IMG/VR virus record: IMGVR_UViG_3300038530_002083
Coordinates: 1 to 64,000 of that record
Reading direction: 5' to 3' (one strand)
Source: a virus
Taxonomy: Duplodnaviria > Caudoviricetes
DNA: 64,000 bases
This document shows positions 11,085 through 59,164 of the stretch, one piece after another. Numbering within the stretch: the first letter of the stretch is position 1; every line of letters starts with the position of its first letter. The notes under the pieces are model-generated. The model searched no databases. It was not told the DNA's origin and saw only the letters and a list, made by a program, of their open reading frames with translations. The translations under genes were made by a program, and so were the position numbers.

Positions 11085-12209
11085 TTGTTAGTGAGTGATA
11101 CGAATAATTTAGTAAAAGAATATTTGGGTACTATCATTGACTACAGCAGGGACAGAGATATAACAGAAGAGGGGTTAGCACTTCTTACTAAAAAAGGTTT
11201 TTACAAATTAGACCATGAAACCAGTCCTCAACAAGGGTTAGCACGAGCAGCTACGTGTTATTGTTTCGGGGATTATGATTTCGCACAGCGTATTTATGAT
11301 TATGCATCTAAAGGGTGGTTTACTTTCGCAGGTGCGCCTTTAATTAATGCTGTAGAGGTAGTATGGCCTGATTTCAATGAACATGAATTCTCTATGGCTT
11401 CTGATTGGTTAGAGGATAATGTTACTCCAAGAGGAATGCCTATAAATTGCTTCCTCTCTTATATCCCAGATACAAAAGAAGGGCTTGTAGATACAAGCTC
11501 TGAAACAAAATGGCTATCAATGCAAGGCGGTGGCATTGGTATCTATACAGGAATGCGTAGCCCTGATGAGAAATCTACAGGAGCATTAGCCCACTTAAAA
11601 GGATATGATGCAGACGCTCTAAGTTACAAACAGACTGAGGCTAAACGTGGTAGTATAGCAGCTTATATGGATATCGACCATCCTGAGATTCTATCGTTCT
11701 TATCGATGAGGAATCCTGTAGGAGGGGACTTCAATAAGAAATGTATGAACCTACATAATGCTGTTAATATTCCCGATAGCTTCATGGAAGCAGTCATAAC
11801 AGGGAAAAATTACGAGTTAATAGATCCTAAACATGGAGGTACAGGTAAGTTCCTGAATGCAGCTAGTGTGTTTGAAGAAATAATGGAAATGCGTTACGAG
11901 ACTGGCGAACCTTACATTATGTTTAAAGACAATGTAAATCGTCAGATTCCTAAGTGGATTACACACCCATTATATAACGTGACACAAAGTAACTTGTGTA
12001 GTGAGATCGTATTAAGAACTTCAGCAAAAAGAACTGCTGTATGTTGCCTATCTTCTGCTAACTTAGAGAAGTACGATGAATGGAAAGACACTAATATGAT
12101 TGCAGACCTTATTAGGTTACTGGATAATATATTAGAATACTTTATTCGTTTAGCCCCTAAACAGTTAAGTAGGGCGGTGTACTCTGCGGTTAAAGAAAGG
12201 GCGATCGGT
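11085..12209 (+). CDS. nrdA: ribonucleotide reductase class I alpha subunit, exon 1
   Basis: PINCF, GGGIG, SNLCSEI, CCLSSANL; ends ...RAIG at the 5' splice site. Confidence 0.92.
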
Positions 12210-13214
12210 TTATAATTTAAGCTGATGTAAAACTGTATTAATTGCTGGAATACCCTTAGAGCCTAGTAAACTACAACGTAGTTGGAAACAACAAGCGTGA
12301 ATGTTTGAAAATTACTAAGATTGGGCAATCAGCAGCGAAGCCTCTTTAACATGAGGAACGTTCAACGACTAGCCGAAAGGCGTACCTTCAAGTGAAGGGA
12401 AACATACAGCACTTATTAAGTGAAGATATAGTCTGGTCTATATGGAAACATATAGCGGAAATCTTATCCACCTTGTGATTATTAGAGGTGGTTTATGAAA
12501 AAATATTACATAGTGTATAAAGTTACTAATAAAATTAACGGAAAATTTTATATAGGCAGTCATCAGACTGTTAATATAGAGGACGGTTATTTAGGTAGCG
12601 GTAAATTAGTTAAATTAGCAATAAAGAAATATGGTAGAGAAAACTTTAATAAGTGTATTATTTGTAAATGTGTAGACCCAAAAGTGATGAGACAGGTAGA
12701 AACACATTTTGTTAGGTATCATATATTAAAGGATAAAAGAAAGTGTTACAATCGTTCCTTTAACGGAACAGGTGCTATGTTAGGAAAAGACAACGCATTC
12801 TTTGGTAAAACACATAGTGACGAATTTAAAGAGGTTCTTTCTCAAAAAGCTAAATTAAGAGTGAAAGACTTAAACCCTTTTTATGGTAAACGTCATAAAA
12901 TATCTACTATAAATAAGATAAAAGAGAATAGACCTAACACAGATAATTGTGTTAATATGCTAAATTACTATTTAGGTTTACAAAAAGGTTGGTGGTGTAC
13001 CCCAGTGGGTTGTTTTTATTCCTCTGGGTACGCAGCTAAGATATATGGTGTATCAAAAGCTACGATACAATCTAGATGTAATAATCCTGACAAGATTGTT
13101 AAACCTAATTACCAAATACCAGAGAAATACCACAATAAAACGTGGAAAGATAATGGATTTTACTATGTGGATAAGATTTCGGGGGCAGATTAACGACCTG
13201 TCTTGAACAATACG
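12210..13214 (+). mobile_element. group I intron in nrdA (1005 nt) carrying a GIY-YIG endonuclease
   Basis: Exon ends in U, IGS GCTGAT pairs ATCGGT; P AATTGCTGGAA, Q AATCAGCAG, R GTTCAACGACTA, S AAGATATAGTC; terminal G; splicing restores RAIG|LGTLGWH. Confidence 0.93.
12495..13193 (+). CDS. intron-encoded GIY-YIG homing endonuclease with NUMOD3-like repeats
   Basis: IVYKVTNKINGKFYIG, YLGSG, FFGKTHS, PFYGKRH. Confidence 0.9.
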   Translation: MKKYYIVYKVTNKINGKFYIGSHQTVNIEDGYLGSGKLVKLAIKKYGRENFNKCIICKCVDPKVMRQVETHFVRYHILKDKRKCYNRSFNGTGAMLGKDNAFFGKTHSDEFKEVLSQKAKLRVKDLNPFYGKRHKISTINKIKENRPNTDNCVNMLNYYLGLQKGWWCTPVGCFYSSGYAAKIYGVSKATIQSRCNNPDKIVKPNYQIPEKYHNKTWKDNGFYYVDKISGAD

Positions 13215-49712: not shown

Positions 49713-50558
49713 CGAAGCGATTAAATATAAAAGTAATTAGGGTAATTTTCTGATTTTAATCTATAAACTAAACCTTGTCGAGATACATCTAACATCCTAG
49801 CAGCCTCTCTTACACCTGAATACTCGACTCCTTCAACACTAACCGGCTTTCTATTCTGTTTTTGTATCATCAAGTCTTTTTTGTTAGGGTCATTCATAGG
49901 GTTATTATCTGTGGAGAAATGAGTAGGATGGTTATCATGTGCTTTTTTGGAAGCAAATTTACCTAATCTACCGAATTCTCCTCCTAATCTCTGATTATAA
50001 TGAGATTCAGAAGATGCTTCTATTTCAGTTACTAATTGATTTTCTCTTTTGTACGCACTCTCATAAGAGTCGAAAACCTCAAAAGAAAATGTAAAATTAG
50101 TAATATCTTTTTTCAAGTCGTTTCCGAAAGGCGTATCAGATTTAGTGTGTTCCACTATACGTCTTGAAAAATTATTAGTAACACCTATATAGGTTTTTTG
50201 GTTTATATTATTTACTGCTTTATAGACTAAAATCATTATTACCTCAGTTTACTTACTGGTTTATATTTAATCGCTCCTGACTATATCTTCACCTTCATCA
50301 TTACATGCTAAGGGTTAGGCTTTTCCACGCAATAAACGTGTACTCCCTCTAAGGGATAGTCGATGAACCTTGATCATATCTTTACAAGACTTAGACCCTT
50401 GGCTGCTGATTGTACGAATTAAAAGAGTTATTGTCAAGCATTCATACTCTCTTTTCAGGAATATTGTAGCTAACTCTTTTCCGTGCTTTCCAGCAATTAA
50501 CCTAATCTTTTTACTAAAGGATTTCTCCTAAAGTGGGCAATTATAAGACTCTATACTT
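49713..50558 (-). mobile_element. group I intron in terL (846 nt) carrying a GIY-YIG endonuclease
   Basis: P AATTGCTGGAAA, Q AATCAGCAG, R GTTCATCGACTA, S AAGATATAGTC; exon ends in U, intron ends in G; splicing restores GGGAGGGKT. Confidence 0.93.
49721..50236 (-). CDS. intron-encoded GIY-YIG homing endonuclease
   Basis: LVYKAVNNINQKTYIG, R..EH, E, YN..GG; C-terminal NUMOD1/HTH YSGVREAA. Confidence 0.88.
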   Translation of the reverse strand: MILVYKAVNNINQKTYIGVTNNFSRRIVEHTKSDTPFGNDLKKDITNFTFSFEVFDSYESAYKRENQLVTEIEASSESHYNQRLGGEFGRLGKFASKKAHDNHPTHFSTDNNPMNDPNKKDLMIQKQNRKPVSVEGVEYSGVREAARMLDVSRQGLVYRLKSENYPNYFYI

Positions 50559-56321: not shown

Positions 56322-56397
56322 TGGTAGCGGGTAATGGAATCGAACCATTCTACTCAAGGTTATGAGCCTTGTGAATTCACCAGAATTCTAACCCGCC
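56322..56397 (-). tRNA. tRNA with CAT anticodon (elongator Met or Ile2)
   Basis: 76 nt cloverleaf: GGCGGGT/ACCCGCT, CAAGG-CTCATAA-CCTTG, GTTCGATTC, encoded CCA; lacks initiator hallmarks. Confidence 0.92.
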
Positions 56398-56737: not shown

Positions 56738-56968
56738 TTAGCATTTAATGGTGTTTGCACTACTATCCCATAAACCTACAGGTTGAGGTAATGAAAATGA
56801 GTTAACCGCATCTTCCAAAGACTTAGATTTAAGTTTACCCATTTCTAACCACAACAAAACTTCTGCTGCAATTTCTCGTTCTACATCATTATAATCTAAT
56901 TGTTCACAAAGCTTATCTAATTTATCTTTGCAGTCGTTACATTGTAACATCTTCTCTATTTTGCTCAT
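56738..56968 (-). CDS. hypothetical protein
   Basis: Coupled ORF, CxxC. Confidence 0.55.
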   Translation of the reverse strand: MSKIEKMLQCNDCKDKLDKLCEQLDYNDVEREIAAEVLLWLEMGKLKSKSLEDAVNSFSLPQPVGLWDSSANTIKC

Positions 56969-57198
56969 AGATAATCACTCATTGTTGTAGGCATGGATAG
57001 ACCTTCAGTTAATGCTGAATGTGCATAGTCTTTATTGATATAAGAATCAGATTCTCGCATCTTATGTTTACAAGAATGGCACATATCCTCCATCTCTCCT
57101 GTTCTTACAAAGACTTCAGGTTTACTTTCATCATACGTATATTTATACGCTAGTCGTTCTGTATCGGTTAGTATACGATCACAGCTAACACATCTCAT
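56965..57198 (-). CDS. small zinc-finger protein
   Basis: CVSC...CHSC, AAGGA RBS. Confidence 0.6.
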   Translation of the reverse strand: MRCVSCDRILTDTERLAYKYTYDESKPEVFVRTGEMEDMCHSCKHKMRESDSYINKDYAHSALTEGLSMPTTMSDYL

Positions 57199-57236
57199 AT
57201 TTAATTCCTTAGTTATTTTCTTAACCTTATATGTAC

Positions 57237-57265
57237 ATTATTACATGGATATCCTATCTTGTCAA
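57237..57265 (-). promoter_or_regulatory. sigma70-type promoter
   Basis: TTGACA-N17-AATAAT with extended TG. Confidence 0.55.
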
Positions 57266-57299
57266 TAGTTTTATGCAATTAATTTGAATTTATTTTCAT

Positions 57300-57775
57300 A
57301 TTCCTTTAAACTAATGTATATTAGGCTGTATTGTATTAGATATATTTCTATTACGAAGTAATAAAGATCTCTAATTAGAGTATTCTTTAATAGATTATCT
57401 TCTTAGATTCAAATTCTAGATAGATCTACCCTATACCCCAACAACCTTAAAAAGGAAACTTTATAATCAGTTTTATGTCGAGTGTATAGGGATAGTTCTT
57501 CTAGAAAAAGAATCTAAGAAACATCGTAGTGATTATCTTCTTGAGTTCATTATTCTGAGCTTTCCACCTTCTGCATTAGGAGAAGGAATTGTTGCTACGG
57601 TTTATATTATCATCAGCCGTAGTAGAGTTACTTTTCATCGTCTAATAAGAAACGATAGGCTATTCGCACCTAACTCTAGGAGACTTGCTCTCCTCTACCC
57701 AGTGCTACACCACCATTGCTATCTTGTGGTACGTTATAGAGAGGACGATAGGTAGTCCCAAACCTCTCACGCTTA
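57300..57775 (-). ncRNA. candidate large structured non-coding RNA (or RNA-primed origin)
   Basis: No ORF of 60+ aa, dedicated promoter, many nested stems with G-U pairs favouring the minus strand; 3' end uncertain. Confidence 0.5.
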
Positions 57776-57780
57776 CTTAC

Positions 57781-57810
57781 ATAATAACACGACATTATAC
57801 TTGTTGTCAA
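57781..57810 (-). promoter_or_regulatory. sigma70-type promoter (leftward)
   Basis: TTGACA-N18-TATTAT with extended TG. Confidence 0.65.
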
Positions 57811-57854
57811 ACAATAATTCACTGTACCCTCATTAATTAATCATAAAATAATGT

Positions 57855-57882
57855 TTGACAAACAAATTATATGTAGTACAAT
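57855..57882 (+). promoter_or_regulatory. sigma70-type promoter (rightward, divergent)
   Basis: TTGACA-N16-TACAAT. Confidence 0.65.
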
Positions 57883-57913
57883 GTATAAAACAGAGGATGA
57901 TAAGGAGAATAAA

Positions 57914-58258
57914 GTGTCACCATTAGATAAACTATATGAAGCCTATGTACAAGACTGCCCAGACAACCCCTACAACGAGCTAGACTTCTCTATAGAGCTA
58001 AATCAGAGTCAAGCAGATATGATGTATAAGGATTGGGAGAAGTACCGTCAGACGTTCACATGGGGGAGATCCTTAGATGCACAAGGTAATTATTTAGAAG
58101 AACCACAAAGAATTAAACTTTGCAATATATCAGACGATCATCTAGAATCTTTAATACTTTGGACAGTTAGAGATTATGAACCTTATATTCATGTTGCTTT
58201 TTGTCGGGAGTTAGGATATCGTAGAGAAAATAATATTTATGTGGAGGAGTACAAATAA
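57914..58258 (+). CDS. hypothetical protein
   Basis: TAAGGAG RBS before GTG 57914. Confidence 0.65.
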   Translation: MSPLDKLYEAYVQDCPDNPYNELDFSIELNQSQADMMYKDWEKYRQTFTWGRSLDAQGNYLEEPQRIKLCNISDDHLESLILWTVRDYEPYIHVAFCRELGYRRENNIYVEEYK

Positions 58259-58398
58259 TGTATGATATTTTAATTAATGCAGGATATAATCATTATGAAG
58301 CTTGTTACTTTATTGAGGAACATACAGGAGCAAGTAAACTTAGCCCTAAAGAGGAGGTATTTGATATGATTAATTGTGAGAGTTTTTGGTATGAGTAG
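58258..58398 (+). CDS. small hypothetical protein (46 aa)
   Basis: GGAGGAG RBS, TAATG coupling; stop overlaps the start region of 58391. Confidence 0.55.
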   Translation: MYDILINAGYNHYEACYFIEEHTGASKLSPKEEVFDMINCESFWYE

Positions 58399-59164
58399 GT
58401 TACTATTATCAGCGGATTTAAAGGGGGTAGGTAAACTTTTAGATGGTTCTATCCAAAGCAGCTATTGGTTAGGTTTTTTGTTAGCAGATGGCAGTTTTAG
58501 TTGTAAAGGTACTCGTATAAAGTTGGCGTTAGGCGATAAAGACCAAGGTACTGTTAAAGATTTTGTAGAGTACCTTGGTAAAAAATATACAACACCTCAC
58601 TGTGGTGCTTTTATGAGTAAAGATTATGTACCTAAGATTGCGGAAATACTGGGATATGAAGAGGGGAAACCGAAAACATATAACCCACCTACTGTGAATT
58701 TCGAAGACGTTATGGACAAGGAACAACTTATAGCATTTTACATAGGGTTTATAGACGGTGACGGTTGTATAAGAAGACAACCTAAAAGAGCTACAACATC
58801 TATAACTATTAAACTCCATAGATCTTGGTGTAATTTTTTACAAAACTTAGTAGATTTTTTATATGATTTTTATGAAGCTGGCGTACCACCTAATGCAAAA
58901 ATAAATAACGCAGGTTATGCAAGTGTATGTATAGGAAATTTCAATGTATGCAAAGGTCTAAAAGTATTTAGTAATAAACTAAATGTTATGAAAAGGAAGT
59001 GGGATATAATAGATGAAGATTTGTTACTTAAAGGTGAAGAATATAGTATTTTTTGTTATAAAGTTAAAAAATTAAATGAATATAACGTCAGTATTAAAGA
59101 TATATCGGACGTTTTAGATTGTGGGTATCAATCAGTAGTAAGAGTTCTTGCAGGAGGGTATTAA
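58391..59164 (+). CDS. free-standing double-motif LAGLIDADG homing endonuclease
   Basis: YWLGFLLADGSF and FYIGFIDGDGCI. Confidence 0.85.
   Translation: MSRLLLSADLKGVGKLLDGSIQSSYWLGFLLADGSFSCKGTRIKLALGDKDQGTVKDFVEYLGKKYTTPHCGAFMSKDYVPKIAEILGYEEGKPKTYNPPTVNFEDVMDKEQLIAFYIGFIDGDGCIRRQPKRATTSITIKLHRSWCNFLQNLVDFLYDFYEAGVPPNAKINNAGYASVCIGNFNVCKGLKVFSNKLNVMKRKWDIIDEDLLLKGEEYSIFCYKVKKLNEYNVSIKDISDVLDCGYQSVVRVLAGGY

Follow-up and report, generated by a model that had tools for sequence, protein, structure and literature searches.

The closest described systems fall in a known, poorly understood category, the large structured RNAs borne by phages, which includes GOLLD, ROOL and a transcript of Vibrio phage ICP1. 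GOLLD and ROOL form RNA-only multimers and are longer than the ~400-nt RNA that we report here. Cryo-EM structures of both are available (bioRxiv 10.1101/2024.12.08.627333), and GOLLD is dispensable for phage production (PMC7567579). ICP1 produces an abundant ~800-nt non-coding transcript that has been called comparable to ROOL and GOLLD; our locus resembles it in that a gap without ORFs, in the genome of a lytic phage that infects a marine gammaproteobacterium, yields a non-coding RNA, here a predicted one (PMC7567579). The ICP1 transcript, however, was defined by RNA-seq and the RNA here by covariation, and the two are likened by description, not by sequence. With GOLLD and ROOL the RNA here shares that it is large, highly structured, promoter-driven and phage-encoded; both are often found near tRNA genes, as this locus has a tRNA-Met gene ~1 kb downstream on the same strand. 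It differs from them in that no Rfam family matches it, in its length of ~400 nt and in its occurrence in one narrow clade of Alteromonas myophages.

Smaller phage RNAs offer further comparisons. The CI RNA of P4, the c4 RNAs of P1 and P7 and the CB RNA of N15 are 77-79 nt long, act in lysogenic immunity and have downstream targets that overlap the ribosome-binding site; in all of them short repeats stand on either side of a hairpin that carries their complement, a layout that the order of elements here recalls, and they are promoter-proximal, as is our RNA. The put elements of HK022 are ~70 nt long with two stem-loops, against ~400 nt here, and are like our RNA in that a genome holds one or two of them, each following closely on an early promoter, and in that their structure covaries; the difference is that a separate promoter here intervenes before the downstream genes. 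Like ColE1 RNA II and the R-loop origins of T4, the locus combines a promoter-driven structured transcript with AT-rich DNA ahead of it at a strand-switch point, but nothing here points to a hybrid, an RNase H site or an initiator, and the iteron-like repeats occur in some copies only. For P1, P7, N15 and P4, complementarity between ncRNA and leader has been described (PMC7567579). Our RNA differs from these in its ~400 nt, in that no start codon follows the repeats, in having no Rfam match, and in that its cultured relative, Alteromonas phage vB_AmeM_PT11-V22 (genus Myoalterovirus; V22 below), is a strictly lytic phage without lysogeny genes (PMC7289586).

The window, i.e., the whole stretch of DNA that was analysed, covers the first 64 kb of a virus record (IMG/VR IMGVR_UViG_3300038530_002083) that is 93,581 bp long and has terminal repeats. 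Its proteins and gene order indicate distant kinship to V22, the 1332-aa protein being 41% identical to its V22 counterpart over the matched part. The RNA locus sits at the divergence point of leftward and rightward genes and is the longest gap within 54-61 kb; the only ORFs in it, of 48 and 51 aa, overlap and are spurious. Promoter and RNA together span 57385-57810; the RNA is ~390 nt long in the window's phage and its relatives have ~430 nt, lengths that leave out the AT-rich 3′ tail and would grow with it. The features of the locus are as follows, given in RNA sense where they belong to the RNA.

57781-57810, minus strand: putative sigma70-type promoter of the RNA (TTGACA, 18-nt spacer, TG-extended TATTAT; 11 of 12 matches)
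57695-57775, minus strand: 5′ domain, with P1 (57739-57768), P2 (57709-57730) and a conserved UAGCAC..GG segment
57739-44/57763-68, minus strand: pairing P1 of the predicted fold
57709-13/57726-30, minus strand: pairing P2, with full covariation across 13 copies
57679-57693 (57679-83/57689-93), minus strand: short hairpin GGAGA/UCUCC, in the window's subgroup only
57623-57678, minus strand: P4 (57671-78/57623-30) enclosing P5 (57650-57/57636-43)
57595-57622 (57595-600/57617-22), minus strand: hairpin P6, with the loop GAUGAU/GAUAAC partly conserved
57567-57594, minus strand: conserved single-stranded YAACAA, then P7 (57581-86/57567-72) with the loop CCUAAUGY
57550-57566, minus strand: conserved single-stranded GGUGGAAAS and the small helix P8, which is without covariation
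57531-57549, minus strand: 5′ copy of the direct repeat, GAACUCAAGAAGAUAAU, predicted to be largely unpaired
57400-57520, minus strand: long hairpin of ~120 nt whose tip forks into two hairpins (AAACY..RGUUU and CCUU..AAGG)
57393-57413, minus strand: 3′ copy of the direct repeat, UUUGAAUCUAAGAAGAUAAU, predicted to be paired in the foot of the long hairpin
57300-57392, minus strand: AT-rich 3′ tail with the weak hairpins AAAGA..UCUUU and UAUUAC..GUAAUA
57237-57265, minus strand: separate putative sigma70-type promoter for the downstream 77-aa gene (TTGACA-17-AATAAT), kept in relatives
56322-56397, minus strand: tRNA-Met (CAT), ~1 kb downstream of the RNA and on its strand
left of the RNA, minus strand: genes for 77 aa, 76 aa, tRNA-Met, 119 aa and 1332 aa (Ig-like and PKD domains)
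57914-58258, plus strand: first rightward gene, for a conserved 114-aa protein (relatives 55-81% identical, 12 clusters)
right of the RNA, plus strand: genes for 114 aa, a LAGLIDADG endonuclease, a phosphoesterase and a methyltransferase

Pfam and PHROGs assign no function to the small proteins encoded next to the RNA. The 114-aa protein, found in this phage clade only, has invariant C..H..C residues and belongs to no Pfam or PHROG family; GTG 57914 is preceded by GGAGA, and ATG 57851 of the ORF track is probably not the start of this gene. The borders of the RNA locus gather mobile and accessory genes, and these insertions differ by phage: an HNH endonuclease in V22 (L001:3055-3849), a DNA methylase in a Tara scaffold (L458:1637-2488) and the LAGLIDADG gene in the window (58376-59164). 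As for tRNA genes, V22 is said to lack them in its published genome.

Read on the minus strand, the 511 nt of 57300-57810 fold at -136.4 kcal/mol against -109.2 ± 5.2 kcal/mol for dinucleotide shuffles (z -5.29), with 0 of 100 shuffles as good, which agrees with the strong folding proposed by the sequence-only reading, i.e., the earlier reading of this DNA from its letters and ORFs. The stems listed in that reading were all recovered in the predicted fold and each maps to a conserved helix, bar 57679-83/57689-93, which is the hairpin of the window's subgroup. The plus strand gives a similar z of -5.52, so the folding energy of a single sequence picks no strand. Across copies, the MFE is lower on the minus strand in 7/7, by 6-38 kcal/mol, and the alifold energy is -56.5 on the minus strand versus -44.4 on the plus strand. 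Among consensus cells G-U outnumber A-C by 60 to 9, the consensus itself having been predicted on the minus strand; the G-U pairs in P7 of three copies would be A-C if read on the plus strand. No conserved ORF was found: ORFs of at least 40 aa inside the RNA are not common to the copies, and single-nucleotide indels occur within the conserved blocks. From the covariation described below, the minus-strand asymmetry and the upstream promoter on the minus strand, we conclude that the element is, on such sequence evidence, an RNA read leftward, the sense that had been proposed for it.

In a blastn search of phage records one genome was matched, V22, with 74.5% identity over 210 nt and no annotated feature beneath. 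The neighbouring proteins are just 41-69% identical to those of relatives and the RNA has ~75% nucleotide identity, so conservation of the non-coding stretch equals or exceeds that of the flanking genes. In IMG/VR, pattern scans yielded a further two complete relatives, G001 (94 kb) and G002 (87 kb), as well as a fragment that matches the window at 98% identity; one metagenome contig (JGI metagenomes) held a further copy, and six more distinct copies were reached through homologues of the 114-aa neighbour in Logan and ENA (Tara) contigs. The total is 14 distinct copies, 13 of them full-length, and the RNA is present in every relative retrieved; many of these copies are close relatives within one narrow clade. 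A covariance model of the central domain only, R1, recovers all 14 copies with no other match in the window, and counts one copy in G000 and V22 and two in G001 and G002. Exact patterns of the repeat in IMG/VR, JGI metagenomes and 185,579 species genomes returned the same phage clade and single chance matches only, and a protein-guided scan of IMG/VR gave the same four contigs and none new. Looser patterns of the repeat were swamped by chance matches, and the two candidates from a P4/P5-junction pattern were both rejected by nhmmer. By these searches the RNA appears so far to be confined to Myoalterovirus-like phages of Alteromonas, a narrow marine clade.

First-copy RNAs always lie between homologues of the 77-aa and 114-aa genes. 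The second copies of G001 and G002 lie ~28 kb off and share ~70% identity with the first. That of G001 comes after a small gene, which we read as HTH-like, and before a 49-aa gene and a 235-aa gene, the latter probably an adenine methylase by its DPPY motif; in G002 it follows an 81-aa ORF without detected similarity to the small gene of G001. The flanking genes thus differ between first and second copies, and no single protein gene travels with the RNA. At the corresponding second-copy site of G000, outside the window (84083-84711; L447:2084-2712), a near-identical promoter, TTGACA-N17-TTTAAT-GTAAGAA, is kept and is followed by an unrelated ORF-free leader of ~310 nt and then a 219-aa gene. 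This leader has neither an R1 nor an Rfam match and may be a different structured leader.

Covariation among the copies supports the fold. In the central domain (alignment A15, 14 sequences, fitted to the model), 94.3% of cells are standard pairs versus 74.0% when shuffled. Changes on both sides affect 20 of 34 pairs (107 cells), compared with 5-8 pairs when partners were slid by 1-3 columns; none of 500 shuffles matched the observed pairing, double-change counts or covariation score. Alignment A9, which was fitted to no structure, gives the same picture. Over the whole RNA, with six sequences, 92.8% of the cells of 94 pairs are paired and 29 pairs changed on both sides versus 13.8 when shuffled (0/500 shuffles reach this). 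By helix, both-side changes were found in 7/8 pairs of P4, 4/8 of P5, 5/6 of P6 and 4/6 of P7, and P2 reads CCAC/GUGG in some copies and GUGG/CCAC in others. The long hairpin was unalignable across subgroups with MAFFT, and alifold within subgroups gave 5, 6 and 4 pairs changed on both sides. Please note that the sequences are related, several of them closely, so that these counts overstate the independent events. Nearly every helix nevertheless shows compensatory changes between the three deep lineages, i.e., window-type, V22-type and second copies. The collection of homologues that the sequence-only reading had proposed as a check therefore came out in favor of the RNA, with 14 copies gathered.

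Several parts of the fold vary or hold still in characteristic ways. Copies outside the window's subgroup carry, in place of the short hairpin, a longer insert with a hairpin, P3, inside a covarying helix. The internal loop between P4 and P5 is purine-rich and conserved (GUGCGAAUAGCCU ... AUGAAAAGUA), and the U-G and G-U pairs at the base of P5 are invariant or nearly so. A pseudoknot proposed earlier, CUACCUA/UGGGUAG, is not supported: it is not kept outside the window's subgroup, where the aligned segments are non-complementary in V22-type and second copies, and within that subgroup both segments are invariant. In V22-type copies a segment complementary to the P1 loop, AAGAC, falls in another, strongly covarying helix. 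Two further helices of the alifold prediction were rejected. One, a long-range helix joining the P1 loop to the 5′ repeat, shows zero covariation at 86% paired; the other, between P1 and the 3′ arm of the hairpin, came up where a misalignment had kept the long hairpin from being predicted, overlaps the 3′ arm and is probably spurious.

The leftward promoter that the sequence-only reading placed at 57781-57810 was found at that place as a promoter-like site, with TTGACA-18-TATTAT on the minus strand and a TG extension. A sigma70-type promoter on the same strand lies directly upstream in 8/8 copies examined, second copies included, often with the TG extension and with a conserved GTAAG right after the -10 box. 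From its position the RNA would start near 57770-57775, within the conserved GTAAGTAAGCG. Since a separate promoter is conserved before the next gene, the RNA looks like its own transcription unit. No conserved GC-rich hairpin with a U-tract was found within 280 nt after the 3′ repeat in ten copies, and within 56900-58000 the sole terminator-like match is hairpin P7, on the plus strand. In the absence of an intrinsic terminator the transcript may continue into the downstream genes.

The 3′ tail is AT-rich in all copies. The 3′ flank (L001:3860-4000; L017:6760-6900; L016:880-1030) carries AAAGAT-N3-ATCTTT palindromes and AGAnACAATCT repeats, the latter three times in V22, four times in the second copy of G001 and once in the first copy of G002; they are absent from the window and three other copies. 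The flank ends in a hairpin followed by GTACAATC in the V22 and G001 types or by its reverse complement GATTGTAC in the G002 type, and this end in both orientations suggests either that a small DNA segment was inverted or that the types have a protein site in common.

The direct repeat noted at 57393 and 57531 is real and longer than the 12 nt first given to it, namely 19 nt (57393-57411 and 57531-57549) at 84% identity. Its two copies bracket the ~120-nt hairpin and are invariant in 13/13 full-length copies of the RNA, which makes them its most conserved part, while the surrounding helices drift. The 3′ repeat forms a duplex of -12 to -18 kcal/mol with the 5′ arm of the long hairpin; the 5′ repeat pairs weakly with the linker or 5′ arm, at -5 to -9.5 kcal/mol, which is not above shuffled linkers, so a bistable switch between the two repeats is not supported. 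A MITE with target-site duplication was also discarded, the flanking repeats being more conserved than the hairpin and the hairpin itself covarying. Mimicry of a Shine-Dalgarno or anti-Shine-Dalgarno sequence by the repeat was rejected by eye, as it would need three A-C mismatches on the transcribed strand, and so was a DnaA box in GTTTCCACC, which has 7/9 relaxed positions and a single occurrence.

Short-read contigs from four independent data sets break at the repeats: L454-L456 and L461 at the 3′ repeat and L451 no more than ~8 nt away, in each case with the start of the contig, and L452 inside the 5′ repeat. The Tara scaffold L460 ends ~30 nt past the 3′ repeat. These are likely assembly breaks at a second copy that shares ~30 nt with the first, in assemblies that we take to have been made at k=31; the alternative is a physical DNA end or a nick.

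Searches against known families complete the description. Rfam 15 at its gathering threshold finds in the whole window two group I introns and a tRNA, all of them elsewhere. The introns, at 12182-12455 (plus strand, 87.8 bits) and 50257-50555 (minus strand, 67.2 bits), both reach the Rfam gathering score. In the permissive scan of 57100-57950 (E up to 10) there were four chance-level matches of 10-18 bits (E 1.7-7.3), and no family, GOLLD, ROOL, C4 antisense RNA, group I intron, tmRNA, 6S and hammerhead included, was matched. The cmscan suggested by the sequence-only reading thus turned up no known family, and its description of an unclassified large phage RNA on the minus strand stands, given the missing Rfam match, the promoters of the copies, the strong covariation and the strand asymmetry. 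We regard it as confirmed, within what sequence comparison can tell, that the element is a real, previously undescribed ~400-nt structured ncRNA gene with its own promoter. The Rfam scan gave no homology to GOLLD or ROOL; the RNA would therefore be a new family within their category.

What this RNA does is a matter of weighing several readings. The best explanation of the whole, which we hold tentatively and at slightly less than an even chance, is that this is a new structured ncRNA gene of Myoalterovirus-like phages whose product is a stable, trans-acting early RNA. We prefer it because the RNA and the genes downstream each have a promoter, because the fold is elaborate and conserved, loops included, and because the paralogues stand beside different genes. 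In this mechanism the host sigma70 RNA polymerase would transcribe the RNA leftward from 57810-57781, presumably early in infection, and the RNA would fold, as covariation supports, into a 5′ domain (P1-P3), a central part with P4(P5), P6, P7 and P8, and the ~120-nt fork-tipped hairpin. The two invariant ..AAGAAGAUAAU.. copies would bracket that hairpin, the 3′ copy locked in its foot and the 5′ copy predicted to be single-stranded. Acting as a scaffold or decoy, the conserved fold could then present the free repeat and several of its conserved loops to a partner, either protein or nucleic acid, and the downstream protein genes would be served by their own promoter. As partners, the neighbouring proteins were considered and set aside, since Pfam, PHROGs and Atlas give them no function. 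The invariance of the repeats fits recognition at the DNA level equally well.

The main rival, possible but in our view unlikely, is a cis-acting leader RNA modelled on HK022 put or on the leader-derived antisense RNAs P4 CI and P1 c4. Such a leader would modify its own transcription complex or message and so control read-through into the leftward packaging and structural genes or, at the second copy, into the genes after it. Every copy does lie right after an early-type promoter and upstream of same-strand genes, no terminator was found, and the order of repeat, complementary arm, hairpin and repeat recalls the layout in P4 and P1. This is opposed by the separate conserved promoter between the RNA and the next gene and by a size of ~400 nt with ten helices, which far exceeds known put or c4/CI elements. 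The free 5′ repeat, moreover, pairs with the linker no better than shuffled sequence, no family in Rfam matches, and V22 is strictly lytic.

We also entertain, as a doubtful proposal, a new class of phage riboregulator or RNA machine. It might be a self-assembling "ornate" RNA whose invariant repeat, a near-palindrome (AGAUAAUCU), mediates contacts between molecules; strands could then be exchanged, as one copy is exposed and the other sequestered. Or it might be a leader-derived antisense RNA that times the early-to-late switch in a strictly lytic marine phage.

Still more doubtful is the primer or activator transcript of a replication origin, in which the RNA would stay hybridised to the DNA just downstream, which is AT-rich and bears repeats, and the repeats would be iterons for an initiator, in the style of ColE1 RNA II or the T4 R-loop. 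The AT-rich 3′ flank with its palindromes suits this reading, and so do the three to four AGAnACAATCT repeats of V22 and of the second copy of G001, which resemble the invariant repeats, but they are missing from the window, the first copy of G001, L248 and the second copy of G002. The site is a divergence point, and the curve of the cumulative GC skew turns at two local minima, near 57 kb and 84 kb, i.e., at the first-copy and second-copy sites; these turns, however, coincide with switches of gene orientation, so the skew does not discriminate. Two copies in some genomes would fit multiple origins, yet the second-copy site of G000 keeps the promoter and has an unrelated leader. Nor was an initiator gene recognised nearby, the neighbours being small proteins without Pfam or PHROG function, the LAGLIDADG endonuclease, the phosphoesterase and the methyltransferase. 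The sequence-only reading had offered such a primer transcript as the alternative to an unclassified RNA, and we keep it as a rival, with decoy, scaffold and ribozyme as the other candidate roles.

A purely DNA-level element (operator, pac or nick sites, cruciform), with the repeats and palindromes as protein-binding sites and the RNA structure as a by-product, is very improbable, for although the repeats are invariant while all else drifts and contigs end exactly at them in four independent data sets, compensatory changes in eight or more distinct helices, together with a strand asymmetry matching the promoter, are unexpected for protein-binding DNA, and the contig breaks are more simply explained by the shared ~30 nt of a second copy at the assumed k=31.

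Large structured RNAs are rare, and most known classes proved to be ribozymes, riboswitches or parts of RNA-protein machines. The weight of the present case is limited by its narrow distribution in one clade of marine myophages; for its size the comparative support is unusually clean: most of its ten helices covary. It also has a host-type promoter that is conserved, and paralogues within single genomes. The V22 genome paper identified no ncRNA with Rfam-based tools (PMC7289586), an annotation that the RNA described here would correct. V22 is in culture with a sequenced host (A. mediterranea PT11), so experiments on the RNA are feasible.
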